The notes under the pieces are model-generated. The model ran no database searches. It saw only the letters and a program-made list of their open reading frames with translations, and was not told the DNA's origin. 28,313 nucleotides of DNA, taken from positions 1 to 28,313 of IMG/VR virus record IMGVR_UViG_2721755712_000003. The stretch is one strand, 5' to 3'. Shown in pieces: positions 1,246-23,695 of this stretch. Each line of letters opens with the position of its first letter. The first letter of the stretch is position 1. The position numbers and the translations under genes were made by a program. Origin of the DNA: a virus. Taxonomy: Duplodnaviria > Heunggongvirae > Uroviricota > Caudoviricetes.

Positions 1246-2156
1246 TTAGCCGCATGATTTATACTGTTTCCAGTTACAGGCTTCTTGAAGCGGTTTTAGC
1301 GTGGTTGACAGGCCGTTTAAATTGAAAGTTGCACTTACAGGGCTTTCATTATAAGGGGTTATTTTTGCATACATTTTGTTTGAGTTGGCTAGTTTTCTGA
1401 TGAAGTTAATGTCATTGCCTTTATAAAAAACAGCCTTTGTATCTGTAGATACTAGCCAGTTTCGCTCAACTGCTTTCTGTTTATCAAGGCGATACAGCAT
1501 GCTGGTTTGTTCAAGGCCTAAATATACATCCCAATTAAGAAATACTTCGGTTTTCTTTTCTCGGCAAGCTATAAACAGAGTAGGGGTAACCGCTTCTCCA
1601 AATGGAGTTCTTATATAATCATCACTTTCTAACGATAAAATTACATTTTTCGAATCATCAATTGGCGATGTAGTAATGGATGTGTGCCATTTTCCTGTGT
1701 CTGTGGCTTTCTCTAATTTTGATTTAGATTGCGCAACTTTTTCCTGTGGAAATGGTTTATCGTAGCAGTTTATTCTAGTTTCTTTATCGTTTTCTGCTCG
1801 GCATTTAGATATCTCAGAAAGATTTGGTTGCTGAGCCTCTGTTGTTACTAGCTGTTTCGCTTTAGATTTTGAGCTTACAGGCGGAGTAAATGTTGGAGAA
1901 AAAAACGGTCATAACAAGATAAACGTCTGTCATCATCTTTCTCATCAGGGCATTGATCTCTGCTTTCGAATTTTTCAGCAACTGTCGTTCGAGTCGGTTG
2001 TATTGACTTATCATAACAAGAAAGTCTTTCTTTATTATTTTCTATTGCTCGGCACTGGAGTGATGACTTAAAGTTATTATGCTCAGTTGCTGCGTGAGCA
2101 GGTAGCACACTAATTGATATAAATGATGCACCTATAGAAATAATCATATTTTTCAT
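1246..2156 (-). pseudogene. frameshifted gene for a secreted Cys-repeat protein (signal peptide plus three C-x(6-9)-[RK]-[LI]-x-C-Y-D repeats)
   Basis: ORF 1875..2156 (signal peptide MKNMIISIGASFISISVLPAHA, repeats ...KERLSCYDK and ...RRLSCYDRFF) stops at 1875. Reading open in the +1 frame from about 1903 encodes a third repeat (RINCYDKPF) and continues into ORF 1246..1500. The frame switch lies at an A7/T7 homopolymer (1898-1906). AT-rich. Confidence 0.55.
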
Positions 2157-2160
2157 TTTG

Positions 2161-2493
2161 TTATCCCTTTGGTTTAGTAAGAAATACTAAATTTCCGATA
2201 ATGATATTGCAAATAACCCATAAGCCTCCAATAGCAATTAAACCTAAGCCCGTACCAATAACTGTACCGGCTTTTTCGGCATCGGATGTGGCGTTGTTTA
2301 TTATTTCACCCACCTCTCTTAGCCCAACACAAATCGTGTAGATTATAAAAATATTAAATAATATGAAAAAATACTTAATGAGTTCTCCAAAAAATGAACG
2401 TTTAAGTTTTTTCAGTTGTTTGCCACAAGCAGGGCAAGACAATACTGAATCGATCACCTCTTTCTGGCATTCAGGACATTTGATTAATGCCAT
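2161..2493 (-). CDS. zinc-ribbon membrane protein (CPECQ...CPACG followed by two hydrophobic helices)
   Basis: Start ATG 2491-2493 (MALIKCPECQ...) with GGAGG SD at 2502-2506. Stop is 5 bp before the start of the downstream secreted-protein gene, suggesting one operon. AT-rich. Confidence 0.6.
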   Translation of the reverse strand: MALIKCPECQKEVIDSVLSCPACGKQLKKLKRSFFGELIKYFFILFNIFIIYTICVGLREVGEIINNATSDAEKAGTVIGTGLGLIAIGGLWVICNIIIGNLVFLTKPKG

Positions 2494-2579: not shown

Positions 2580-3001
2580 TTGATTAGCTGGTATAGAGTG
2601 AGACAGGATGCCTTATCGACCTTACTCTGGCAACTGATTGACGGGGGATTGCTCCCCCGTCGCGGTTTCCTTACTGCTTACACTGTAAGAACGCCGCAAA
2701 CTCCGCTCCCCAGAAACTCATCCGTATTTCACACAGCGAACCGTGCAGCATCCAGATGATGAGGATTGCCGTCACGCAGAACGTGATGGCCGTAAGCGAT
2801 TTTTGCGACATAGCACTTGCTCCTTTTCCGGAGAGGCGCTAACCTTTCACTTGTCAAGGTAATGCGGTTAGGGCCTCGGTTAAACAGATATGTTTTCCGG
2901 GGCCTTTCCACATCCGGCCTTCGGGTATTCCCTCCGACCATCAGCCGAAAGGCACCCGCACGTAATCTATCGCTTTTTTGTTACTCCGGCAATTCTGCCT
3001 G

Positions 3002-3262: not shown

Positions 3263-4149
3263 AGCGACCTCCCTTAACGTGGTGCTGCCGCTATTCTAAG
3301 TTGCTCACTCTGTTTCCGCTATCCATTCCGGGATTTTTGCCTCAAGCTCAAGCTGCGTGGTAAAGCCGCTGTTATCAATGGTGTGCCCGGCTTTTGCAAT
3401 AATCCAGTCCTGATTATCAATCTCGCTTTTAAATCCTGTTACCGTGCCATGCATTTCGGGGTAGAGCTCTGCACGTCCACGCGCCAGCGTGATGGAGAAT
3501 GATGCGGCTCCGCGTTGTAGTTGCTGCCACTTTGCCGCCGCTGCGCGTCTTGCTGCCTGCTCGTTCTGATAAGTCTTGCGTAACACAAACACATTGCCTT
3601 CCGCGCCTTCCATATAATCACCTTCACGGCTGCTGCTTTTCTCCTTTTTGGGTTTTGGCGGTTTACGGCGTTTCACGCTGACTTTTTTCTTTTTCCCGTA
3701 ATTAAGATCAAGCCAGTAGGCGCGTACCCCCGTATACGCCTCGCGGTCAGCAATGCGGAACTGATGGCGATCGCCGCTGCTGCGTGTAATGGCGAACGAG
3801 GGCAACGGCTGGCCCTGTGCGTTCACGCCACCACCTGGCATGATGAATAACAGATTGCCGCTTTTTACCGTGGTGATTGCACCCAGCATTTCCGCCATGC
3901 GCGTAAGGAAGGACATGTCGCTTTCTTCGGTCTGGTCGGCGTGGTCGATTTCGATATCCATCAGCATTTCGCTGATTTGCGGTTTCAGACCATACCGATG
4001 AGCGATGGCGGATACCACACGCTCAACGGTCACATCATGCCAGGACACCTCACGTTTAACGTTAAATTCATCCCAAAAATCTGCGCTTCTGGCTGAAACA
4101 GTCAGCCTGTCCGGCGGTCCTTCGTGAGCGATTTCATCAACAATGTAAG

Positions 4150-5370
4150 TGTAGATTCAATTGGTCAACGCAACAGTTATGTGAAAACATGGGGTTGCGG
4201 AGGTTTTTTGAATGAGACGAACATTTACAGCAGAGGAAAAAGCCTCTGTTTTTGAACTATGGAAGAACGGAACAGGCTTCAGTGAAATAGCGAATATCCT
4301 GGGTTCAAAACCCGGAACGATCTTCACTATGTTAAGGGATACTGGCGGCATAAAACCCCATGAGCGTAAGCGGGCTGTAGCTCACCTGACACTGTCTGAG
4401 CGCGAGGAGATACGAGCTGGTTTGTCAGCCAAAATGAGCATTCGTGCGATAGCTACTGCGCTGAATCGCAGTCCTTCGACGATCTCACGTGAAGTTCAGC
4501 GTAATCGGGGCAGACGCTATTACAAAGCTGTTGATGCTAATAACCGAGCCAACAGAATGGCGAAAAGGCCAAAACCGTGCTTACTGGATCAAAATTTACC
4601 ATTGCGAAAGCTTGTTCTGGAAAAGCTGGAGATGAAATGGTCTCCAGAGCAAATATCAGGATGGTTAAGGCGAACAAAACCACGTCAAAAAACGCTGCGA
4701 ATATCACCTGAGACAATTTATAAAACGCTGTACTTTCGTAGCCGTGAAGCGCTACACCACCTGAATATACAGCATCTGCGACGGTCGCATAGCCTTCGCC
4801 ATGGCAGGCGTCATACCCGCAAAGGCGAAAGAGGTACGATTAACATAGTGAACGGAACACCAATTCACGAACGTTCCCGAAATATCGATAACAGACGCTC
4901 TCTGGGGCATTGGGAGGGCGATTTAGTCTCAGGTACAAAAAACTCTCATATAGCCACACTTGTAGACCGAAAATCACGTTATACGATCATCCTTAGACTC
5001 AGGGGCAAAGATTCTGTCTCAGTAAATCAGGCTCTTACCGACAAATTCCTGAGTTTACCGTCAGAACTCAGAAAATCACTGACATGGGACAGAGGAATGG
5101 AACTGGCCAGACATCTAGAATTTACTGTCAGCACCGGCGTTAAAGTTTACTTCTGCGATCCTCAGAGTCCTTGGCAGCGGGGAACAAATGAGAACACAAA
5201 TGGGCTAATTCGGCAGTACTTTCCTAAAAAGACATGTCTTGCCCAATATACTCAACATGAACTAGATCTGGTTGCTGCTCAGCTAAACAACAGACCGAGA
5301 AAGACACTGAAGTTCAAAACACCGAAAGAGATAATTGAAAGGAGTGTTGCATTGACAGATTGAATCTACA
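4150..5370 (+). mobile_element. IS30 insertion sequence, complete (1221 bp), flanked by 2-bp target duplication AG
   Basis: Left end TGTAGATTCAATTGGTCAACGCAAC at 4150; right end is its imperfect inverted copy (22 of 25 matches) ending at 5370. AG at 4148-4149 and 5371-5372. Length equals canonical IS30. Confidence 0.95.
4212..5363 (+). CDS. insI: IS30 transposase
   Basis: 383-aa ORF MRRTFTAEEKASVFELWKNGTGFSEIANILG... recognised as the E. coli IS30 transposase (HTH N-terminus, DDE core). Confidence 0.95.
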   Translation: MRRTFTAEEKASVFELWKNGTGFSEIANILGSKPGTIFTMLRDTGGIKPHERKRAVAHLTLSEREEIRAGLSAKMSIRAIATALNRSPSTISREVQRNRGRRYYKAVDANNRANRMAKRPKPCLLDQNLPLRKLVLEKLEMKWSPEQISGWLRRTKPRQKTLRISPETIYKTLYFRSREALHHLNIQHLRRSHSLRHGRRHTRKGERGTINIVNGTPIHERSRNIDNRRSLGHWEGDLVSGTKNSHIATLVDRKSRYTIILRLRGKDSVSVNQALTDKFLSLPSELRKSLTWDRGMELARHLEFTVSTGVKVYFCDPQSPWQRGTNENTNGLIRQYFPKKTCLAQYTQHELDLVAAQLNNRPRKTLKFKTPKEIIERSVALTD

Positions 5371-11532: not shown

Positions 11533-12020
11533 ATGCTGAATAATAGAGATATGAATATTAATGAACTTAAAGACTGTATTCACTATGAAGTAATCGGTAG
11601 CGAGCGTCCTTTCTCCTGGCGAAAGGCAATTGTTCGCGCAATAAAACATAGAAGACTTCGTTATTTATTTTGGTGGCGCATAGCCAAATACCTTTTTGAT
11701 AAAGGCGGATACTGCCGGAAGATTGCGGGGAAAATAGAACGTTTCATTCTTGATAAATATAATGTAACAGTCCCTTTAACTGTAAATATAGGGAAAGGCT
11801 TTGATATTTCTTATCTCAACAGTGTTGTTATCGGTCACAAAGTAACAATCGGTGAAAATTGTTCAATAAAACCGGGGGTAACTATTGGGCTACGTGGTGA
11901 TTTTAATGATATGGATATTGTTATAGGACATAATGTGACCATTGGTTGTAATGCCACCATTCTTGGTGGCAAAGTGCGTATAGGAAACAATGTCACAATA
12001 GGTGCTCATGCATTGGTAAC
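11533..12020 (+). pseudogene. left-handed beta-helix (hexapeptide-repeat) sugar O-acetyltransferase-like gene, WcaB/CysE-like, probably 3'-truncated
   Basis: AT-rich ORF with tandem [LIV]-G-x-x-x-x-[IV] hexapeptide repeats (VVIGHKVTIGENCSIKPGVTIG..., IVIGHNVTIG..., VRIGNNVTIGAHALV). Base composition switches at about 12010-12020, beyond which the ORF is antisense of the fibre gene. Confidence 0.6.
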
Positions 12021-12465
12021 CACCACCTTCAAGAACTTCAAGGAGTCCCTGACCATAACTTCCTTCTTCCGGATAGTTGCGGTCAAATGAAGCGATTGAG
12101 CCACTACTGTTTCGCCATAAACCAAGATGCTCTGCGCCTCCGAGCGTGTTCAGGTCAATGGTTGTGCTCAGGGGGCGTGTTGCAGACTGAACCTGACGCC
12201 AGTAACTCCACGGACCGTCTGAACCATTCCATGTGCCAGAAAGGTTGCGCATATAAACATTGCCTGTTCTGGTGGTGTAACGCTGCATTCCTGCAAAATT
12301 ACCGCCATTGAATACCTCCAGTACACCGACTGCACCGTCTTCAGGGAAATTTTTAGCAGCCGTCGCGTTAGTGGATGTAGCTTTAGACCAGACGCCAAGA
12401 TAAGCCTTAACGGGACCAAATGTATTCAAGTCAGCATCAAGCGGCATTTCGCCATTGTTTTTCAT
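12021..12465 (-). pseudogene. tail fibre C-terminal receptor-binding fragment (N-terminal shaft missing, C-terminus cut)
   Basis: Two tandem copies of a fibre-tip-like motif (DLNTFGPV...GVLEVFNGGNFAGMQRYTT...W..W and DLNTLGG...GLLEVLEGGG); the second copy breaks off at about 12021. Starts 5 bp after the J stop with no gpI gene between. Confidence 0.6.
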
Positions 12466-12470
12466 AAACG

Positions 12471-13316
12471 TCAGGCTGGTAACGCCAACATTGTCCAGAA
12501 AAGCGCCCTTATCTCCACGCGTTGCACACCGTGCACATGCAGTGCGGCAGCAATGGCGGACAACGCCACGTCCTGACCGATAAGCCCCTGCTCAGCCAGC
12601 CACTTCCTGAACGACGATTCAGCCGCAGCCAGAATAGGTTCGGATTCCGGGCCGGGATAAAAGTACAGTTTTGCATTCAGCCGCCATGTCACGATTCTGG
12701 CGCTCTGTACGGTCAGGCGGTCGGCCACCGGGCGGGTATCCTCTGCATTCAGAACGGCACGAACGGTATTAAGCAACGCCTCCGTTGCTGTGCCGTCGCC
12801 TTCAGTGGACAGGATGGAAACCGTCACACAGGCCGGAGACGGGCTGATGGCCCGCGCATCACGCACCAGACCGCTGGCGCTGCGTGCAAAATACTCGTAT
12901 GCACCTGACGGGCCAGCAACACTCAGGCCGTCGTACGCCCGCTGCGCCCGCAGTCTCAGCGAGGTGTCGCTCTCCATCACCGCGTCGGTGGTATCCGTTG
13001 CCGGAGTGATAACCAGGCGCTTTGTGTTCATATTGCCCGCGAGGTTGTCCAGGTCTGTCCCGGCGCTGTGGCTTAACATGCAGGCGCGTGCACCCTCATT
13101 GACCCGCTGGCGTAACAGCATTTCACGAAACGCTGTTGTCTGGGCGATAACGTTCAGGGGTTCCGATTCCAGCTCCAGCGCAGCGGAAACGGCTTCACGC
13201 TGTTCGGCGGGATAAGCTGCAATCATCATGGCCTTTGTGTCAGCCAGAATTGCTTCAAAGTCAGGCTCCGCGATGATGGCGGGTTCTGGTAACTGGGAAA
13301 GGTCAACGGCGGGCAT
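12471..13316 (-). CDS. J: baseplate assembly protein gpJ
   Basis: 281 aa, follows W in canonical order; slightly shorter than the roughly 300 aa expected, so the C-terminus may be affected by the adjacent deletion. Confidence 0.8.
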   Translation of the reverse strand: MPAVDLSQLPEPAIIAEPDFEAILADTKAMMIAAYPAEQREAVSAALELESEPLNVIAQTTAFREMLLRQRVNEGARACMLSHSAGTDLDNLAGNMNTKRLVITPATDTTDAVMESDTSLRLRAQRAYDGLSVAGPSGAYEYFARSASGLVRDARAISPSPACVTVSILSTEGDGTATEALLNTVRAVLNAEDTRPVADRLTVQSARIVTWRLNAKLYFYPGPESEPILAAAESSFRKWLAEQGLIGQDVALSAIAAALHVHGVQRVEIRALFWTMLALPA

Positions 13317-13319
13317 GAT

Positions 13320-13670
13320 TTACTCCCTCAGCGTGATGGTTAACTCAACATTCTGCATGGTCTGCATGACAGTGCCCGACAGCGTCACCCCGGCGCGGCC
13401 TCCCGCTTTCCAGACAACGTCAATGGCATCCAGGGCAATGCGGGGTTCCCATCGTGTCAGCGCAATCACGGCAGCACTCATGCATTGCAGACGCGTGGTG
13501 TTATTCATGGGTTCGTCAATCAAATCAGGCACAAGGCTGCCATATTCCCGTCGCATAACCCGGCTTGCCAGCGGGGTGGTCAGGATGTCCCTGACTGACT
13601 GTTTCAGGTGCTCCATATCGTTCAGGTTTCCCGTTCCGTCCGGGTTCATTCCTGTGTAGCGGGTTGTCAC
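13320..13670 (-). CDS. W: baseplate protein gpW
   Basis: 116 aa; position and size between V and J; start overlaps the V stop. Confidence 0.85.
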   Translation of the reverse strand: MTTRYTGMNPDGTGNLNDMEHLKQSVRDILTTPLASRVMRREYGSLVPDLIDEPMNNTTRLQCMSAAVIALTRWEPRIALDAIDVVWKAGGRAGVTLSGTVMQTMQNVELTITLRE

Positions 13671-14248
13671 TGTGGGCCTCCTGTCGAATCGCTGCCGCCT
13701 TTCACGCCACCGTGTTTATGCGTATGCACTGTAATGCCGTTTGAGGTGAAGTTGCCGCCGCTGTGCGTGATATTGCCGCTCATCTTTCCTCCTTTTGTGA
13801 CGTCAAGCGTCGCCGTTCTCAGAAGGTTTGTGCATTCCACGACGGGCGTATCCAGTTTCACGCTGACGGATGCCTGTAAAGTGGCCGTTTTCATGCCGCT
13901 GGCGCTCAGTGCGCCAGCGTCCGCGTCGTAGCGGAACACCGCGCCGTCCGGCGCGCTGATCACGATTTCTTTCAGGCTTTTGCCGGGGGCCGGACTGGCA
14001 TCACTCCACAGGCTGCCAATTATCATGGCGGTTTCCGGGTTGCCGCCAATGCAGGCAATTACCACCTGTTCGCCGGGTGATGGCGGCAGCCACACATTGA
14101 AGGCTCCCGCGCGCGTGGTGTTCCAGCGCAACCAGTCTGTTTCCAGTTCGCCGCTGCGAACGCGCACGCGCCAGGACTTCTCATCAACTTCAGAGATGAT
14201 CCCGGTGCGGATGATATTGCTCAGCAGTCGCATGAGTTCTGCGCTCAC
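13667..14248 (-). CDS. V: baseplate spike protein gpV
   Basis: 193 aa, canonical position; Gly-rich C-terminus. Confidence 0.85.
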   Translation of the reverse strand: MSAELMRLLSNIIRTGIISEVDEKSWRVRVRSGELETDWLRWNTTRAGAFNVWLPPSPGEQVVIACIGGNPETAMIIGSLWSDASPAPGKSLKEIVISAPDGAVFRYDADAGALSASGMKTATLQASVSVKLDTPVVECTNLLRTATLDVTKGGKMSGNITHSGGNFTSNGITVHTHKHGGVKGGSDSTGGPQ

Positions 14249-14889
14249 CGTACAGCCTCCGCAATCCGGCCCAGCACCGTGTTATAAATCAGGCGCTCAT
14301 CTGTCTGGCTGATACCCAGCAGCTCACGTGCCGGGTAATTGGTGAAAATGCCCGGCGCAACCTGATCGCGCTCACCGAACTGATGAACGCGGGCAATACG
14401 TGCGGCCACGCCGCTGTAACCCACCGTCACACCGGAAGCATCTGCACGGGCTTTCAGGTAGCGGGCGGTGCGCAGTTTTACGAACATGGGGACGCGCTTT
14501 GTGCTGTCCTGGTTGATGCGCCGGGTGCGTATTTCCAGAAAACGGTCGATGTCATCCCGGTAAAACGTGCGGATATTGTTTTTATCCTCATCCCACCCGG
14601 TAATGGTTCGCCCGTATTTCCCCGTGTCGTGATGCCAGTTTTTCAGCGTGCGTGCTTCGTTATTCCAGATAAAGCGAATGCGTTCCTGTATCCGGGTTAC
14701 GCGGCGTCTGCGTGGTGTCCACGCGGTCCCGTCCGGCGCTTTCTGTGACCGGATACGCGCCTGCTGGGCGCGGCGTAAATCCTGTGCCAGCTTTCTGGCG
14801 ATGTTATTGATGGCCTGCTGATTCAGGCTGTCGCGGATGGCCTCAAAGGTTTCATCCACGCGGGTGAATGCCTTATCCATCGCTTTCAC
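14245..14889 (-). CDS. S: tail completion / virion morphogenesis protein, gpS-like
   Basis: Between R and V; 214 aa if started at 14889, longer than the roughly 150 aa expected, so the true start may be internal. Confidence 0.6.
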   Translation of the reverse strand: MKAMDKAFTRVDETFEAIRDSLNQQAINNIARKLAQDLRRAQQARIRSQKAPDGTAWTPRRRRVTRIQERIRFIWNNEARTLKNWHHDTGKYGRTITGWDEDKNNIRTFYRDDIDRFLEIRTRRINQDSTKRVPMFVKLRTARYLKARADASGVTVGYSGVAARIARVHQFGERDQVAPGIFTNYPARELLGISQTDERLIYNTVLGRIAEAVR

Positions 14890-15340
14890 CCCACGTCACA
14901 TCCTGGAATACATGCGACCAGTCGCCTTCGGAAGATGGCAGGCGGGGTTTTGGCTCCGGCAGGTGTTCTGCCTGCGGTGTGCCCTGACTGCTGCGCGTGA
15001 TGCGAACGCGTTCCCGCAGGGGGAGCGTAAACAGGAGATCGGCGCTGTCATCGTCATTGATAACGGCGGAAAATTTGATGTCCTGATTACGCTCAGGGTT
15101 GAGCAACAATTGTGGCTGATTTTCGGATAACCACGCCAGCAGCGGCAGCGTGAGGTCGTCCAGCTCCCCGGCGTAATCCATGACAAACATCACCATCTGA
15201 TAGCGGTAAACAAACGATGGGGTTTCTCCTGTCGTTTCAATGTTGCCGCTCTCCACGAAAATGGTGAATTTTTCCGGGTTGGCCTGACACCATCGGCATG
15301 AACGGGTCATGGCTTCACGCAGGGAATCAGTTTTCAGCAT
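14873..15340 (-). CDS. R: tail completion protein gpR
   Basis: 155 aa, the size and position of P2 gpR downstream of the lysis genes. Confidence 0.8.
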   Translation of the reverse strand: MLKTDSLREAMTRSCRWCQANPEKFTIFVESGNIETTGETPSFVYRYQMVMFVMDYAGELDDLTLPLLAWLSENQPQLLLNPERNQDIKFSAVINDDDSADLLFTLPLRERVRITRSSQGTPQAEHLPEPKPRLPSSEGDWSHVFQDVTWGESDG

Positions 15341-15617
15341 GGTTGTTATCCTCGTTGTTCAGTCGTTGCAGCCTGCGCTGTTCCAGTAATTCAATGGCCC
15401 GTTTATCCGCGTTACAGGTTTCCAGTGCATCCAGAAGGCGGTCGCCCCATATACCGAGATTTCCCCATGTGGGAGTATCAGGGAAGGGGGGAGGCGTTAC
15501 CGGTATGGTCAGCGTCTGCGGTATAAGCCGGACTGACGGCGCTGGCCGTGGCGCGTTCTGCGTGCCTGCGCAGCCTGTCAGTAAAACGAGCGTCAGGCAA
15601 AGCGTGGGCGCATTCAT
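15327..15617 (-). CDS. o-spanin (Rz1/LysC-like outer-membrane lipoprotein)
   Basis: Lipobox LLTGC, Pro-rich mature region (PPPFPDTP); overlaps the i-spanin gene out of frame. Start at M1 (15647) or M11 (15617) is uncertain. Confidence 0.6.
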   Translation of the reverse strand: MNAPTLCLTLVLLTGCAGTQNAPRPAPSVRLIPQTLTIPVTPPPFPDTPTWGNLGIWGDRLLDALETCNADKRAIELLEQRRLQRLNNEDNNHAEN

Positions 15618-15885
15618 CTTTTGCAATATCGTTGCGTAGCTGTTCACGTCTTACCTCTCCGTCCTGATTGCGTTGCTGATTTTCCACGCGGAGTTGCGCC
15701 AGCACCTGCTGCATATCCTGTACCCCGGCGCTGATAATATTCAGGGTGTCGGCGGTACTTTTCAGGGTGCTGGCCTGCGCTTCGTTTCTGGCGTTCTCCC
15801 GGCCCAGCGACCACGACAGACGCATGGATGTTCCCCATCCAGCAATCAGAAGGAAAGCGACGCCCAGCGTGGGCCAGAGCTTCAT
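15478..15885 (-). CDS. i-spanin (Rz/LysB-like)
   Basis: ATG 15883-15885 overlaps the endolysin stop (ATGA); N-terminal TM (LWPTLGVAFLLIAGWG) then a coiled-coil-like periplasmic part. Confidence 0.6.
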   Translation of the reverse strand: MKLWPTLGVAFLLIAGWGTSMRLSWSLGRENARNEAQASTLKSTADTLNIISAGVQDMQQVLAQLRVENQQRNQDGEVRREQLRNDIAKDECAHALPDARFTDRLRRHAERATASAVSPAYTADADHTGNASPLP

Positions 15886-16274
15886 GCCGGATAGGCTCCG
15901 TGTGGTAACTGAAAATGCGGTCCGTCTTTCAGGGTCTTCCAGTCGCCGCCCCATTCCACCGGAATATTCAGTTCCCGGCTGGCCTGTCTGAATGCTGCTG
16001 CGATTTTTTCGTACAGCGGCCATTCCCATGACACCTGGCTGCCGATATAAGCCACAACATCCACGGCATGTCCCGTAAGGTGGCGGCTGTTCATGGTCTG
16101 GCTCTTACCCGTGGCCACCAGTTGCTTCTGGTGGTAACGGCTGCGCAACCCTTCGGTGATACCAAAATCCACTTCCGAAATTTCCAGTGCCCGTCGGGTC
16201 ACTTTCACCAGATCAGGATTTACGCCCTGCAAATTCTTTTCGCTCCGGCTGCTGAATTTAAATGTGTTGCTCAT
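15882..16274 (-). CDS. endolysin, M15-type peptidase (L-alanyl-D-glutamate peptidase-like)
   Basis: 130 aa with SRHLTGHAVDV and WGGDW blocks typical of peptidase M15 endolysins; start overlaps the holin stop. Confidence 0.75.
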   Translation of the reverse strand: MSNTFKFSSRSEKNLQGVNPDLVKVTRRALEISEVDFGITEGLRSRYHQKQLVATGKSQTMNSRHLTGHAVDVVAYIGSQVSWEWPLYEKIAAAFRQASRELNIPVEWGGDWKTLKDGPHFQLPHGAYPA

Positions 16275-16594
16275 TCGTCCTTCTCCTTCACCCTGCGATT
16301 AAAGGCTGCAATAACCTTGTCGCGTGCTTTCTCTGCGCCCATAAAACCGATTGATGCGCCGATAAACGTCACGGCATCTTCAGGAAAACCGAAGAAGCGC
16401 AACGATCCGGCCACGGCCATGGCAAGAACGCCGCACGCCAGCGATCCCGTTACGGTCTGAACCAGTGTTCGTCCGTCATAAAGACTCATCAGCGCGGAAA
16501 TGCTGACCGCCGCGCCTACTGCATACACCGTTGGCAGGTGGTCAAAGAGCCACGCAATAACCTGCTCTGTGATCCCTGTTTGAATGGTGCTCAC
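16271..16594 (-). CDS. holin
   Basis: GTG start with GGGGAG SD, 2 nt after the X stop; about 108 aa with two or three hydrophobic helices and a charged C-terminus (KVIAAFNRRVKEKDE). Confidence 0.65.
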   Translation of the reverse strand: MSTIQTGITEQVIAWLFDHLPTVYAVGAAVSISALMSLYDGRTLVQTVTGSLACGVLAMAVAGSLRFFGFPEDAVTFIGASIGFMGAEKARDKVIAAFNRRVKEKDE

Positions 16595-16596
16595 TG

Positions 16597-16797
16597 CTAC
16601 TCCCCCCACAACTGAATCATTTCTCGTTTCTTCTTCTCCGGCTCCGGCATCTCCACTTCCTGCCCGGCGTCCAGAAATACCTGCTGACAGAGTCCGGGGT
16701 TGGCATCCAGCACCTTTTCGGTGACGCCCTGCGTCGTGCCGTAGTACCGGAAACAGAGCGAATCCACGGTGTCGCCTTCCAGTACCTTCACTTTCAT
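16597..16797 (-). CDS. X: tail protein gpX (LysM-like)
   Basis: MKVKVLEGDTVDSLCFRYYG...ANPG... resembles P2 gpX as remembered (LQGDTLDAICVRYYG...ANPGL). Start overlaps the L stop. Confidence 0.85.
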   Translation of the reverse strand: MKVKVLEGDTVDSLCFRYYGTTQGVTEKVLDANPGLCQQVFLDAGQEVEMPEPEKKKREMIQLWGE

Positions 16798-17291
16798 CAG
16801 CACAACTCCGCAAAGATTCGCGGGCGGCACAGAATGTCAGAGATGGCCCAGCTCACATCACGCCACAAATCCGATGTCTGTATATCCAGAGCGTCCGCCC
16901 GGCGGTCGCCCTTGTCCGTTGTGTCTGCATCACGATAACGCTCCAGAATCAGGGCGCGCGTGGCGGTATAAACAGCATTGCGCCAGTGCCAGAGATTGAC
17001 GCTTTCTCCGTTAATTACGGGTGCCGGAACATCGGCCAGCGTCTGATGGCCAGCCGCCTGCTGTTCCTGCTGCCATGCTTCCAGCTCGCGGGTAACGTGT
17101 GCCACGGCCCCAGTGGCGGTATGCAGCAGGCGGGAGGTGGTCACACGGCCCGGCAGTCGTACCGCCAGACGCAGCTCACGCAGCACAATATCCGGCCAGA
17201 ATGCACCCGCTGAAATACGGGTATCACCATCATCGGTATCGGTGATGTCGTCCTCTGCGGGTCCGGGGTTGGTTCTGGCAACCATACTCAT
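16797..17291 (-). CDS. L: head completion/stabilisation protein gpL
   Basis: About 165 aa, downstream of M; GGAGTGA SD before ATG 17289-17291. Confidence 0.85.
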   Translation of the reverse strand: MSMVARTNPGPAEDDITDTDDGDTRISAGAFWPDIVLRELRLAVRLPGRVTTSRLLHTATGAVAHVTRELEAWQQEQQAAGHQTLADVPAPVINGESVNLWHWRNAVYTATRALILERYRDADTTDKGDRRADALDIQTSDLWRDVSWAISDILCRPRIFAELC

Positions 17292-17392
17292 TGGGTTCAC
17301 TCCTGAAAAAATCGGGCGGTGGGTGCGCGGTGTAAACGGTCACGGAGTCAAACCGGAACACCGCGCACGCCGCCCGCTGACGGGGTCAGTCG

Positions 17393-18193
17393 TTAACCGC
17401 GCTTCGCCTTCTGCGTCGCGGTGGTTTTTCGTGTTGCAGGCTTCCGCGTTGTCTTTTTACTTTTGCTGCTTTCGTCCTGCGCCTGCGGTGTGCTGGCGTC
17501 TTCTGGTTCGGCTGCGGAATCGGCTTTTTTCAGGGCGCGGGAAAGGGTTGCAATCTCGCGTTTCACACCTGCGTTCGGGTTCAGGTGCATCGCTTCGCGC
17601 AGCAGCTTCAGTGATGAGGCCATGCTGTCCGCATCGCTCAGGCCACGGCGGGCAAAGGCGCACGCCTTGCATAATTTGGCGCGCACTTCGTCCGGCATAT
17701 CCTGGTTGGCGACAATTTCCCAAAGTGTGTCCAGTGGTTCGATAAAGGCGGACAAATCCGCGTCGGCATCCGTCCCGGCCTGCGTCAGTACCGGGTTGCA
17801 GATTTCTTCGGTCAGTACCGTGGCAGCAGTACGGCCAAAGTTATCCGGCATGATGAGGTTGTGACGGACCACATACGCACCAATACGCAATGCCAGCGGA
17901 AGATCGCCGCAGTCAATCGCCCACACCATCAGCGTGGCAATCACCTCATCTTGCTGCCCGCCGTCAGCCTCCAGCGTTCCTTCAATCCAGCCGGAAAAGT
18001 CCGGTAACAACTCTTTTTTGATGGCGGCTTTGGCGCTTCTGGCCTGTACGCCCTTAAGTCGGGCCTGTGCCAGACGCAGACGATACAGCACCTCTTCATG
18101 CGCGGTACGTGCGGCGTGATCCACGCCTTCATTCGCCCGGCCTGCGCGCTGCGCCATCACGTTCTGCCAGTGTTGCTGTGCAGGGGTAATCAT
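17393..18193 (-). CDS. M: terminase small (endonuclease) subunit gpM
   Basis: 266 aa, GGAGAGAAAG SD, basic C-terminus; canonical position after N. Confidence 0.9.
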   Translation of the reverse strand: MITPAQQHWQNVMAQRAGRANEGVDHAARTAHEEVLYRLRLAQARLKGVQARSAKAAIKKELLPDFSGWIEGTLEADGGQQDEVIATLMVWAIDCGDLPLALRIGAYVVRHNLIMPDNFGRTAATVLTEEICNPVLTQAGTDADADLSAFIEPLDTLWEIVANQDMPDEVRAKLCKACAFARRGLSDADSMASSLKLLREAMHLNPNAGVKREIATLSRALKKADSAAEPEDASTPQAQDESSKSKKTTRKPATRKTTATQKAKRG

Positions 18194-18210
18194 TCTTTCT
18201 CTCCGTTACA

Positions 18211-18229
18211 GGCGGGCATGATGCCCGCC
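18211..18229 (-). other. 19-bp palindrome GGCGGGCAT-G-ATGCCCGCC between N and M
   Basis: Read directly; candidate stem-loop in the N-M intercistronic RNA. Confidence 0.3.
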
Positions 18230-18238
18230 GTGAGTTGA

Positions 18239-19243
18239 TTAGCTGTCGGCGAACTTCAGGCCTGTGACCATCGCGCACTTGCCATAGTCTTCAACGACAT
18301 AAGCGTCATTGATGGACTGGTAGGTGGCGATGCGGTTGTATTCCGGCTCGTCTTTCATCAGGCGACGCATTGAGCCTCTCTGCCAGTAAATTGACAGGTT
18401 GTTGAATGAGGTGATCAGCATCGTTGCATCCGGGAAGAACGGCGCAAGGAATACATCCAGCCCACCAATGGTGCGCGATGACAGGATGAGCTGTCCGGCG
18501 AGTAATTCCGCATTGGGATTCTGGCCGCTGATGCTGTTCAGCACGGGCAGACGCAGCGAGTTAAACAGGTTGCGCCCCATAATCACCACGAGGTCGTCTG
18601 CTTCCTTGTGCCATTCATCCAGCAGGGATGAGCGCGCGTCCTGTACCAGTGCATCAGCGTTCGCATACTTACCCGCGTGCGCCACTGTGTTGTCCATGTT
18701 GCGGGAAGTCAGCGTCACGTCATTCATTACGCGTTCACTGGCATCGGTTCTGATGTGCTCCAGCCAGCCCACGTTAACGTCCTGAAGCAGCTTGTTGGTG
18801 CTGAAATTGGATTTTTCCGCGTGTGATGTGCCGTTAAAGCCGATCATGATGCGGTCAAGCGCCACCTGCCGGGCAATCTGTGTGCTGATGCGCGACTGAA
18901 AATCGCTGTGAGCCGCCCAGGCATCAAGCTTCGGGTATGAAATAAACGTGTCGTAGTTCACCTGTTCACACTGGTACTGACGAGCCTTCATATCGACAGC
19001 GTTAATCGGATTACGGCGATCTGTGCCGTCATAACTGGTATTCGTGCGCGCAATCGGCCCGGTGGTGTCCAGGAGAACTTTTTCGCCTTTCTGGTCAGTT
19101 ACACCGATTACATTAATTCTTTTCGTAAATTCGGTACTTTCCTTTGAAGCGTTTTCAAAACGCTGTTGTACCGATGGATTGACGGTAAATCGCGATACCA
19201 GCGCAGAAACCGGGATATTGTTAAGCGACGCCTGCTGCGTCAT
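18239..19243 (-). CDS. N: major capsid protein gpN (5' end clipped relative to P2 N)
   Basis: 334 aa; FTVNPSV, RINVIGV and DAYVVEDYG blocks match P2 gpN. Homologous reading continues about 11 codons upstream of the first ATG into the P ribosome-binding site with no start codon. Confidence 0.9.
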   Translation of the reverse strand: MTQQASLNNIPVSALVSRFTVNPSVQQRFENASKESTEFTKRINVIGVTDQKGEKVLLDTTGPIARTNTSYDGTDRRNPINAVDMKARQYQCEQVNYDTFISYPKLDAWAAHSDFQSRISTQIARQVALDRIMIGFNGTSHAEKSNFSTNKLLQDVNVGWLEHIRTDASERVMNDVTLTSRNMDNTVAHAGKYANADALVQDARSSLLDEWHKEADDLVVIMGRNLFNSLRLPVLNSISGQNPNAELLAGQLILSSRTIGGLDVFLAPFFPDATMLITSFNNLSIYWQRGSMRRLMKDEPEYNRIATYQSINDAYVVEDYGKCAMVTGLKFADS

Positions 19244-19288
19244 GTAGCAGCCCAGCTTGTTACGGGCATTAATTACTCAGGGGGAGCA

Positions 19289-20542
19289 ATGATTCAGGAC
19301 GCTTTTGTGCGCCAGCGTGCGCGGCAACTTTACTGGCAGGGTTATCCGCCCGCAGAAATATCACGTCTGATGGGAATAAACCCGAACACGATTTATGCGT
19401 GGAAAAAACGCGACCAGTGGGATGAAACGCCCCCCGTGCAGCGTGTCACGCAGTCCATCGATGCGCGCCTCATCCAGCTTACTGAAAAACAGAATAAAAC
19501 AGGCGGTGACTTTAAGGAAATAGACCTGCTGACCCGGCAGCTTAAAAAGCTGCATGATGGCCAGCCGGATGTGATGGCCGCAGGAAAGAAAGGCCGGGCG
19601 AAAAAACTTAAAAATCATTTCACGCCGGAACAGATTGCCGCACTGCGGGAAAAAATCATCAGCAGGCTGGAGTGGCATCAGCGGGGCTGGTTTGACTCCC
19701 TGACACTTTGCAGGGAAGCCGGGATACGTAACAGGATGATCCTGAAATCCCGACAGATTGGGGCGACCTGGTATTTTGCACAGGAAGCTCTGCTGATGGC
19801 GCTGCGTGACGATGTGGCGCAACCTTACCAGCGTAACCAGATTTTTTTGTCTGCGTCGCGTCGTCAGGCGTTCCAGTTTAAAAGCATTATTCAGAAGGTC
19901 GCGGCTGAAGTTGATGTGGAGCTGAAAGGGGGCGATAAAATCATCCTCTCCAACGGCGCAGAGCTGCATTTTCTCGGCACTTCTGCTGCGTCGGCACAGT
20001 CCTATACGGGCAATTTTTATTTTGATGAATTTTTCTGGGTCAGTCGCTTTGCTGAACTGCGCAAGGTGGCTGGCGCTATGGCAACCCTCAGCGGACTGCG
20101 GCGCACCTACTTCTCCACGCCATCCACCGAAACGCACGAGGCGTACGCCTACTGGAACGGCGACCGCTGGAACGAGAAAAAGGCCTCGCATAAACGCCAG
20201 CGTTTTTCTGTGGACTGGAAAACGCTGCATAACGGGCTTATCTGCCCTGACCGGACTTGGCGGCAAATTGTCACGCTGGAAGATGTGGTTAATCACGGCT
20301 GGAAACACACCGATATCGACGAAATTCGTGATGAAAACACCGAAGACGAGTTCCTCAATCTCTATATGTGTGAGTTTGTCCGCGAAGGGGAATCGGCATT
20401 TAACCTGAATATCCTGATTGGCTGCGGTGTTGACGGATACGACGACTGGAAAGACTGGAAACCTTTTGCTCCCCGCCCGATGGGGAATCGTCCGGTATGG
20501 ATTGGGTATGACGCAAACGGCAGCAGTGGCAACGGCGACACC
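19289..20542 (+). pseudogene. P: terminase large (ATPase) subunit gpP, 3'-truncated at about aa 418
   Basis: GGGGGAG SD before ATG 19289; terminase-like sequence up to ...GYDANGSSGNGDT, after which the ORF is the antisense of gene A. Confidence 0.85.
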
Positions 20543-20544
20543 GT

Positions 20545-21822
20545 GCGGATGCCATACCAGCGCAGGCCGTCGCGGTTCAGTTTCTTGCGGACCGCCGCAA
20601 AAAACGAGTTAACCAGGTAATCGCTGGAGTCGCGCATAGTGGCCCCGTTCCATTTGGGATTCGGATGACCGTTCTCCGTTGTTGCGTGGTATTTTGACGG
20701 GCAGGTGACAGTCAGAAACACCGCTCTGTCGCCACGGGCTTCGGCCAGAAGTTCCAGCCCCTTCATGGTGGCCATCATTTCTGCCTTACGGTGAACCGGG
20801 TTACTTACTCCCGCGTAATACACTGTCTCAAGATCAATCGTGAACCCGTCTTCGTTTTCCAGCATGAAACTTTTCAGGAAATCGCGTGTTTTCTCGCGCT
20901 GTGCGCGAAACTCGCTTAACGCATCCTGGCTCAGATAGGGCGATGTTTTTCTGGAAACCAGACAGGCGGCGCGGAGTTGTTCTTCTCTCCACTCGCAACG
21001 TAACAGCCACAGTTTGCGTTTCCACCATTCCGCACAGGTCAGGCGAAGGATTGCGCCCGGCAGCAGCTCCGTGTCTGGTTCGTTCCTCCGGCCTTTGTCT
21101 GTTGTCAGTGCGTCATAATGCGGAGGCATGGCGTGCAGGTGTAACGCCATGCGGGCCAGCATCTGATACGCCTTCAGCGTTACATCCATGGTCAGCTCGC
21201 CATCAGTCGCACCAAAGCCATCGCAGAGTTTTTCGAAGGTGCTGCTGAACATCGCCGCCGTCATGGTGGCCAGCGTCTGTATCTGGTGTTTGTTGAGCTG
21301 CGGCAGGTAAAGCAAATCGTCCAGGCGTTCGCGTCCGGCAAGGGAGCGATAACCCGGTGTCAGCCAGTGTCCGTCAGTGCGATCCAGACGTTCGAATATT
21401 TTGCGCAGGGTTCCGCGTGCATAGCGTTCTGCCTGCCAGCTCTTTTTGCCTTTCCGGCGATCGACTTCCTGTTTTTTGCGCAGGAAGGAGAGGTGGCGAA
21501 TAAGCGGATCGCGCAGATAGGACGGCAGCAGGCGCAGCGAGGCCATGGCTTCATCCACCGCGCCGCGTGCCTGTCTTCTGGCGTCTCCTGCCAGCGTGAT
21601 GGTTTTGTCCTGTTTTTCCTGTGCGTCCAGGCTTTTATTAATCAGGTTGCCCAGTGGCGTGGCAGAGAACGCCGCATCAGCCTTTTCCTGTCGGCGCTCG
21701 TTCTCTGCCTGGTAGGCATCCAGCCAGGAGGAAAGCGCGGATTCAGGTGCGGGGATCCCCGTTCCTTCACGCCCCACTGCGTGGCGCGGTTGTTGCCAGT
21801 CCCTGATGTACTCTGTCGTCAT
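20545..21822 (-). pseudogene. A: replication initiation endonuclease gpA, 3'-truncated before the HUH active-site region
   Basis: N-terminal about 425 aa is gpA-like (…FLTVTCPSKYH…RWYGIR) and stops resembling gpA where the Val-Glu-Pro-His-His-Asp-Gly block would follow; beyond that the ORF is antisense of P. Confidence 0.85.
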
Positions 21823-22497: not shown

Positions 22498-22674
22498 GGT
22501 GTGGCCTCTTTGGTTGTAAGTTTTGAAAACTCACCATCCAGAGCTGCGAAACTGTGGGTGGCGAGACGTACGGGGTTCGCAGTACCGGCAACCAAAGAAC
22601 CCGGCCCGACCGAAGTCGGCCCCGTACGCCCCGCCATAATTCTGACGCGAAAAAAACGTGGCAATACAGTACGC

Positions 22675-22702
22675 ACAAAAAAACCGCTGGCGCGGTTGTG
22701 CG
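22675..22702 (-). terminator. intrinsic terminator (hairpin followed by T7 on the minus strand)
   Basis: Minus-strand RNA reads CGCACAACCGCGCCAGCGGUUUUUUUGUGCG; the T-run is the complement of 22675-22681. Lies downstream of the SPFH gene. Confidence 0.55.
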
Positions 22703-22864
22703 CTTTGGTTGTCAGCAGGCTGCGAAACCCGGCACCCGTTTTATGAGGTGCAGCGAAAATGTAACCTGACTGATTGCGGCATGGCAAGCGGTTTTTTTGT
22801 GAGAACGGCATACTAAAAAATCCTGATACTGCTCCGGCCAGCGGTTTGCACTGGCCGGGTGTCA

Positions 22865-23695
22865 TTACTTCACGGGAACGAACGGAACAGCGGTGTTACT
22901 GGTCATGTATTGCGGCAGCGTGCCGTTCCATTTGTTGATTGCTTCCAGCTCCATAACGCCGGGATTCTGGCGCAGAGCTTCGCCGCGTAAACGAATGGCG
23001 TCGGCTTCAGCCTGGGCTTTTGTGCGAATGGCATCGGCCTGTCCGGCAGCTTCTGCGCGCAACATGTTGGCTTCTGCTTCGCGTTGCTTGACTTCCTGTT
23101 CGCGTTGCAGGGTTTTCTGGTTTGCCGTGACTTTGGCGTTAATGCTGTCGATAACGGTTGGCGGATATTCCGGTTTACCGACATAAGAGAGGCTCATGAC
23201 CTGAATACCGATGGGGGTCATCTCTTCCTGAATATCTTTAAGTGCTGAATCCAGCAGTTCAGACTTACCACCGTCGATAAACTTATCGGTGGTCATTTTG
23301 CTGGCCAGTCGGTTGAGTGCATCGGCGATCTTCTGGCGCAGGTCAGTGTCGGTAATGTCGTCCACGCCTTTGCGGTAGGTCTGAAACACCGTGGTAACTT
23401 TGGATGGATCAACTTTGTAGGCCACGCCGATGTGATAGCCGATGGTTGTGCCGTCACTCATCTGGAAGTTGAACGGCTCATCGTAACTCTTCATTTGTTT
23501 GAAGGTCGGGAAGATGTAAACCTCTGTATTCCAGCCTGTCCAGTAGCGGCCAACGCCAACCACTTCACCGACGCCTTTGTCGTCGCCCAGTTTGTTGACT
23601 TTGATGCCCACATTACCTGGCTCAACGCGATCGCAACCAACCAGCAGGATGGCGGCAAAAAGCGGGAGAATCTGAAAGAGTCTGAATTTCTTCAT
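22865..23695 (-). CDS. SPFH/band-7 (stomatin/prohibitin-like) lipoprotein
   Basis: 276 aa, lipobox LLVGC, SPFH-like core followed by an Ala/Gln/Glu-rich coiled coil (QREQEVKQREAEANMLRAEAAGQADAIRTKAQAEADAIRLRGEALRQ). Start overlaps the upstream gene stop (ATGA). Confidence 0.75.
   Translation of the reverse strand: MKKFRLFQILPLFAAILLVGCDRVEPGNVGIKVNKLGDDKGVGEVVGVGRYWTGWNTEVYIFPTFKQMKSYDEPFNFQMSDGTTIGYHIGVAYKVDPSKVTTVFQTYRKGVDDITDTDLRQKIADALNRLASKMTTDKFIDGGKSELLDSALKDIQEEMTPIGIQVMSLSYVGKPEYPPTVIDSINAKVTANQKTLQREQEVKQREAEANMLRAEAAGQADAIRTKAQAEADAIRLRGEALRQNPGVMELEAINKWNGTLPQYMTSNTAVPFVPVK

Follow-up and report, generated by a model that had tools for sequence, protein, structure and literature searches.

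A P2-like prophage in the chromosome of enterotoxigenic Escherichia coli (ETEC) very probably carries the scar of one microhomology-mediated illegitimate deletion and persists as a cryptic remnant. The window, by which we mean the whole 28,313-nucleotide stretch of DNA that was analysed, holds this prophage, a member of the P88/Xuanwuvirus group, between flk and pdxB. The deletion would have joined nucleotide 1,252 of the large terminase gene P to nucleotide 1,284 of the replication gene A, which is convergent with P, through a shared CA dinucleotide, removing 5,727 bp. At one stroke, the prophage would have lost the nuclease domain of its terminase, its portal gene Q, its cos region, a cargo of DUF3800, ParR-like, and ParM-like genes, and the catalytic half of A with an ori-like sequence, which presumably left it incapable of replication and packaging. 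Three more deletions at small microhomologies and an IS30 insertion would have helped to turn it into a locked-in cryptic remnant.

The site is marked by two long open reading frames (ORFs) on opposite strands that overlap tail to tail at positions 20362 to 20620 of the window. The plus-strand ORF (19166 to 20620, with an annotated start at 19289) is open over 443 codons, and the minus-strand ORF (20362 to 21822) is open over 486 codons. Pfam analysis and alignment to L003, a related prophage copy in E. coli FDAARGOS_1077, assigned positions 19289 to 20540 on the plus strand to the 5′ 1,252 nt (417 codons plus 1 nt) of a P2-type large terminase gene (gpP), which we call P′. Positions 20539 to 21822 on the minus strand correspond to the first 428 codons of a P2-type replication initiator/nickase gene (gpA), which we call A′. 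Homology to P extends to position 20540 (L003 24380) and homology to A begins at position 20539 (L003 30106). The deletion junction is the CA at 20539 to 20540, a 2-bp overlap common to both parents (L003 24379-24380 and 30106-30107). Past the junction, the P′ ORF runs on for 26 codons and a stop as antisense of A (20541 to 20620, plus strand), encoding TVRMPYQRRPSRFSFLRTAAKNELTR, and the A′ ORF runs on for 58 codons and a stop as antisense of P (20362 to 20538, minus strand). The native parts differ from the L003 proteins at none of the 417 residues of P′ and none of the 428 residues of A′.

These results agree with a sequence-only reading of the same DNA, which had described the ORFs as a truncated P and a truncated A fused tail to tail, each continuing as antisense of the other gene; Pfam, BLASTP to P2, and the protein comparison with L003 all point the same way. 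That reading also put the junction in the right place, but its breakpoints, about 20542 and about 20545, were off by 2 and 6 bases. Its native end of A, ...RWYGIR, is indeed native but falls short, as native A′ continues through TV and ends ...RWYGIRTV before the foreign tail. Full-length homologs (583 aa for P and 793 to 940 aa for A) did not align end to end with the two ORFs. The chimeric ORFs are most probably by-products of the deletion, not genes.

P′ retains the N-terminal gpP-like helix-turn-helix domain (PF06056, Terminase_5; residues 6 to 63, profile positions 1 to 58 of 58, E = 1.3e-26) and the ATPase domain (PF03237, Terminase_6N; residues 150 to 374, profile positions 1 to 211 of 215, E = 2.2e-50). 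The RNaseH-like nuclease domain (PF17289, Terminase_6C), which occupies residues 405 to 566 of the 583-aa L003 terminase, gave no Pfam match in the P′ ORF of the window. Because this domain is absent, the window P gene is a fragment of a member of the P2-type large terminase family and presumably not a functional member. In BLASTP comparisons, P′ was 45% identical to residues 14 to 416 of the 590-residue P2 gpP (E = 8e-120) and A′ was 28% identical to residues 42 to 392 of the 761-residue P2 gpA (E = 3e-35), matches far beyond chance in both cases.

A′ matches positions 1 to 246 of the 321-position Phage_GPA profile, whereas a full-length relative matches positions 1 to 321. It stops just before the HUH-type motif: in the A protein of L003, the residues right after ...GIRTV are EPHHDGTVHWHMM. 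A′ thus has neither this motif (EPHHDGTxHWH; EPHHDGTVHWH directly beyond the A′ end) nor the tyrosine pair downstream of it. In P2 A, the matching HUH motif starts at residue 391, and alignment places the tyrosine segment GYIAKYISKN at about residues 449 to 458; we take the tyrosines in this segment to be catalytic. A 38-nt ori-like sequence at L003 29332-29369, 79% identical to P2 29874-29911 around the nick site at 29892, falls inside the deleted stretch and is absent from the window. From its sequence, A′ would lack every catalytic element.

The ancestral state of the junction survives in L003, a near-identical and much less degraded copy of the prophage at the same flk/pdxB site. The window aligns to L003 in colinear blocks. 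Up to the junction, the P side is free of differences, and the A side has 2 mismatches in 7,775 bases. Between P′ and A′, what is gone is exactly one contiguous piece of 5,727 bp, L003 24381-30107. Since a single contiguous stretch is missing and its flanks are colinear and nearly identical, one deletion is enough to account for the junction. The single deletion proposed earlier is therefore the most economical reading, although it is not proven.

The copy in FDAARGOS_1077 may itself be impaired already, since RefSeq marks its A gene as incomplete. This gene lacks about 340 bp of its 3′ end relative to the 940-codon form, and about 22 bp can be aligned to either side of this gap (L003 29008-29029 against L002 5774-6112), which suggests a direct repeat there.

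The annotation of L003 defines what was removed along with the catalytic elements of A. Within L003 24381-30107 lie the last 166 codons of P, which encode almost all of the RNaseH-like nuclease domain; all of portal gene Q; the intergenic region between Q and the cargo; the cargo itself, consisting of a DUF3800 gene, a gene for a ParR-like partition protein, and a ParM-like gene; and the 3′ portion of A, including its HUH motif, tyrosine segment, and ori-like sequence. Gene order places a predicted cos region in the Q-to-cargo interval, inside the lost stretch; the 19-nt cos sequence of P2 was not found with up to 4 substitutions allowed. Packaging, portal, replication-nuclease, and accessory functions were thus lost together, as the sequence-only reading had held. 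Its account of the P2 interval also matches the P2 record, in which A, orf91, tin, old, cos (cosR/cosL), Q, and P follow one another and A and P are convergent once the cohesive ends are joined. Accessory genes were indeed lost here, but they are the DUF3800 gene and the ParM/ParR-like pair, whereas old and tin are the cargo of P2. A related flk/pdxB prophage in strain M9682-C1 holds yet another cargo set.

We also searched for a displaced copy of the lost segment. Among the matches listed for its 5,725-bp core (L003 24381-30105), 100% identity was found only in FDAARGOS_1077. Genomes that carry the junction were absent from the top matches to this core, except for E143, which has a separate P2-like prophage at another locus with 98.4% identity to the core. 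No displaced copy at about 100% identity was seen in the complete genomes with this junction.

A second deletion junction lies immediately upstream of P′, at positions 19270 to 19271, where a TA microhomology marks the loss of 1,017 bp (L003 22095-23111). This deletion took the first 20 nt of the major capsid gene N and the entire scaffold gene O. It also took almost all of the O-P intergenic region, of which the last 18 nt ahead of the P start codon remain. What remains of N, here N′ (18239 to 19243, minus strand), lacks its native start and retains 334 of 350 codons; in relatives, N is annotated as a shorter intact protein that begins at an internal start. In the P2 record, the O-P intergenic region contains divergent late promoters and an activator site. 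Because this region has been deleted, P′ has probably lost its promoter too, by analogy with P2.

The window prophage resembles Peduovirus P2 in its gene order, its convergent A and P, and the cargo slot and cos between them. It differs from P2 in that A in its prophage group is longer, at up to 940 aa, and in that its FI-U tail operon is inverted. Over the capsid-terminase stretch (N′ and P′), the Xuanwuvirus members P88 and 520873 have 95.9 to 97.5% nucleotide identity to the window; each record also gives a second match besides this stretch. Escherichia phage 520873 has the layout A-parM-parR-cos-Q-P. The records of both phages keep full-length P and Q, unlike the window.

Three further deletions relative to L003 (2,167, 1,278, and 1,017 bp) also have microhomologies of 2 to 6 bp at their junctions. 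The 2,167-bp deletion has a GTA overlap at positions 12016 to 12018, and the 1,278-bp deletion has a TTATCT overlap at positions 12509 to 12514. Together these two removed the fiber-assembly gene, most of the fiber gene, gene I, and part of J, leaving between them a 499-bp island of the tail fiber gene. Compared with an intact P2-like set, P, Q, the cos region, A with ori, O, the start of N, H, G, I, and part of J are missing or truncated. Judged by this gene set (int, C, cox, A with ori, cos, Q, P, O, N, M, and the tail and fiber genes), the window does not hold an intact, inducible P2-like prophage. The integrase, the repressor, the lysis genes, and some tail genes are retained, and both int and cox appear intact.

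Other features of the remnant accompany these losses. The D-like gene (3305 to 4105, minus strand) is 801 bp long, whereas its P2 counterpart has 1,164 bp, and a partial ORF of 93 bp comes after it; this arrangement is found in all the copies examined at flk/pdxB and at leuZ, the site of a second prophage, including the least degraded. Accessory genes kept in the remnant or at its left flank lie at positions 22865 to 23695 (minus strand), 11551 to 12090 (plus strand), 2671 to 2811 (minus strand), and 1246 to 2493 (minus strand). A gene for an SPFH-domain protein is present in the early operon, adjoining a pseudogene at about 22548 to 22865. The tail-fiber locus has a hexapeptide-family acetyltransferase gene, a Hok/Gef toxin gene is present in the remnant or its left flank, and the interval from flk to ogr contains a TagO-like gene and a zinc-ribbon gene.

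The P/A junction has spread clonally. Nine complete genomes of ETEC have an identical junction, as does a metagenome contig, and E1649, the ETEC lineage-2 reference genome (PMC8085198), is among the nine. The paper that describes the ETEC reference genomes covers intact prophages only, and the P2-like flk/pdxB remnant is not described there (PMC8085198). By its sequence, the host of the window appears to be E. coli of the O6 ETEC lineage-2 type. The window is 100% identical over the aligned sequence to strain F5656C1, and the sole difference is a complete IS30 in the window (4150 to 5370). This element is 1,221 bp long, encodes a 383-aa transposase, has a 2-bp target duplication (AG), and separates the truncated D gene (D′) from the tail sheath gene FI. 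At this position, IS30 is absent from every complete genome among the closest matches listed for the window. Decay has continued in some junction carriers; for example, strain 2011EL-1370-2, of the same clone, has also lost a stretch equal to window 13060-18614. In RefSeq relatives, the PGAP pipeline labels P′ a "terminase large subunit domain-containing protein" and A′ a "replication endonuclease," both "incomplete, missing C-terminus," and calls both pseudogenes.

Microhomology-mediated illegitimate deletion occurs in E. coli, which has known hot spots of illegitimate recombination. The junctions in the window resemble such events in having 2- to 6-bp overlaps and no insertion sequence (IS), and we infer that this combination would be the signature of an illegitimate, microhomology-type deletion. 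The 2-bp overlap at the P/A junction would fit a RecA-independent type of joining. Because the other three deletions in the window also have 2- to 6-bp microhomologies, the same process would have acted repeatedly. A deletion mediated by an adjacent IS was considered and rejected: no IS is present at 20539/20540, and IS30, the only IS in the window, is 15 kb away.

The left end of the deletion recurs in a different prophage. A second P2-like prophage adjoins leuZ in ETEC lineage-1 strains, e.g., E925 and FORC_031; it has another integrase, another immunity and early region, and another A allele, 91 to 95% identical to those of the flk/pdxB prophage. The lineages in which the two deletions occur, L2 for flk/pdxB and L1 for leuZ, were assigned with reference to PMC8085198. 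In nine genomes, P of the leuZ prophage is cut after exactly the nucleotide at which P of the window ends (…GGCAACGGCGACA), and the overlap is once more CA. In this case P is joined to codon 16 of parM, and A remains full length at 940 codons. The deleted form is represented by L002/L005 (NZ_LR883050.1, about position 1,998,716), L006, and L016, and the pre-deletion state by L022 (NZ_CP024232.1) in strain 2014EL-1346-6. Comparison of L022 with L005 reveals a clean 4,061-bp loss with flanks that are 100% identical. With pre-deletion states available for both prophages (L003 and L022), the sequences point to two deletions that arose independently, each in its own prophage and at its own locus, yet share one end in P. 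The two prophages were not co-resident in any carrier examined, and the attachment site of the other prophage was empty.

The two prophages share a near-identical late block that runs from inside D to the end of Q (L003 about 4483-25902). Over its length of about 21 kb, the only difference is at L003 6966, so that the sequence from this position through the breakpoint is identical in both. The block would be the product of a recent exchange of modules by P2-like phages with different integration sites. We considered whether the block of near identity might end at the breakpoint and rejected this possibility, as it continues to the end of Q.

Because the leuZ prophage has a shorter deletion with an identical left end, a random breakpoint is somewhat unlikely. 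We roughly estimated the chance that any two endpoints coincide exactly at about 2%, based on about 20 deletion endpoints counted across the prophage family over about 25 kb. A classical hot-spot model based on direct repeats does not explain one endpoint that recurs in two prophages on a 2-bp overlap. The position after …GGCAACGGCGACA in P might instead be a preferred break or joining point from which deletions extend to the right over varying lengths. Such a point could be a site for a nuclease or topoisomerase/gyrase, or a structure-dependent one, that is peculiar to the phage module or the host lineage. This explanation is possible, though on the unlikely side. It would account for the same nucleotide and CA overlap in the step from L003 to the window (5,727 bp, into A) and in that from L022 to L005 (4,061 bp, into parM), which took place in prophages with different integrases, in ETEC L2 and L1, that were not found together and whose pre-deletion states both exist. 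Several results weigh against it. A 300-nt probe across the site matched 1,109 records among 5,426 E. coli genomes, and only the two known junction types were seen, accounting for all 15 of the partial matches. A scan of genome, viral, and metagenome collections for the P-left 21-mer followed by a non-G base revealed no third junction type with the same left end in the viral, metagenome, and species-representative collections; it otherwise gave chance matches in unrelated GC-rich bacteria. No Chi site was found within 12 kb of the breakpoint, and local single-stranded DNA folding there was no better than that of shuffled sequences. In addition, the estimated chance of coincidence is low but not negligible. 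The stronger form of this proposal, that in O6 ETEC hosts DNA tends to be broken or joined at the position after …GGCAACGGCGACA and that independent prophages are inactivated in this way, seems to us rather doubtful.

A protein search for other truncated terminases returned partial sequences at contig ends and two P-Q fusions with another breakpoint, none of which pointed to this site. The two fusions, P0004 (708 aa) and P0005 (698 aa), combine terminase N-terminal domains with the portal domain PF04860, and their sequences suggest that another internal deletion, in other E. coli prophages, fused P and Q in frame.

The common end could also have arisen in two steps, with a shorter deletion occurring first, or with a co-resident copy of the junction fixing the broken P end, followed by later joining into A. 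The leuZ prophage offers exactly such a shorter deletion, from P to codon 16 of parM, together with the all but identical late block. We nevertheless consider this improbable. Another allele (95 to 97% identity) lies to the right of the leuZ junction, whereas the right flank of the window differs from L003 at 2 of 7,775 positions, and no flk/pdxB prophage with an intermediate junction was found. The empty attachment sites in carriers speak against co-residence, and a second deletion beginning exactly at an old junction would need an explanation of its own. As sources of the common end, a hot spot specific to a lineage or an allele, an earlier interaction of the two prophages, and coincidence cannot be told apart with these data. 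The recurrence leaves the main reading, one microhomology-mediated deletion from P into A, unchanged, but it qualifies the words "a single deletion."

The chimeric ORFs could alternatively be functional domesticated genes, e.g., a nuclease-less terminase ATPase or an A fragment that interferes with P2-like phages. At 443 and 486 codons they are long and open, P′ keeps a complete ATPase domain, and the early operon that ends with A′ is otherwise intact. Yet the region upstream of P′, which contains the late promoters in P2, is almost all deleted, the ORF tails are antisense read-through, both ORFs are labeled pseudogenes by PGAP, and neighboring genes were lost later in related lineages. Moreover, the carriers are all clonal and do not differ at the junction, so they yield no selection signal. 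Domestication is thus very improbable. An assembly artifact in which two contigs were chimerically joined has nothing but the abruptness of the junction in its favor and can be dismissed, as the same junction is present in nine independently assembled complete genomes, including long-read reference genomes of ETEC (PMC8085198), and in a metagenome contig.

The preferred reading, a deletion scar in a cryptic prophage, describes a biologically ordinary observation that is already annotated as two pseudogenes. Like other cryptic prophages of E. coli, this one is a temperate phage inactivated by deletions and an IS insertion and inherited clonally, with the integrase, repressor, lysis, and some tail genes remaining and the replication and packaging genes gone. 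It differs from them in that ancestral, intermediate, and further-decayed states are available at or near 100% identity, and because of this the deletion can be defined to the base. The result is a clean, base-resolved case of prophage decay in which one 5.7-kb deletion removed replication, packaging, and cargo functions, and it cautions annotators that the two long ORFs at 19289 to 21822 are chimeric pseudogenes. A P2-like prophage has been locked into the ETEC chromosome, and both less and more decayed states of it survive in sequenced relatives. The recurrent breakpoint is the only element with wider potential. Should a specific break site lie behind it, this would be relevant to the ways in which bacteria disarm prophages: the removal of cos, the portal gene, and the terminase nuclease domain would then be site-directed prophage domestication and not random decay.
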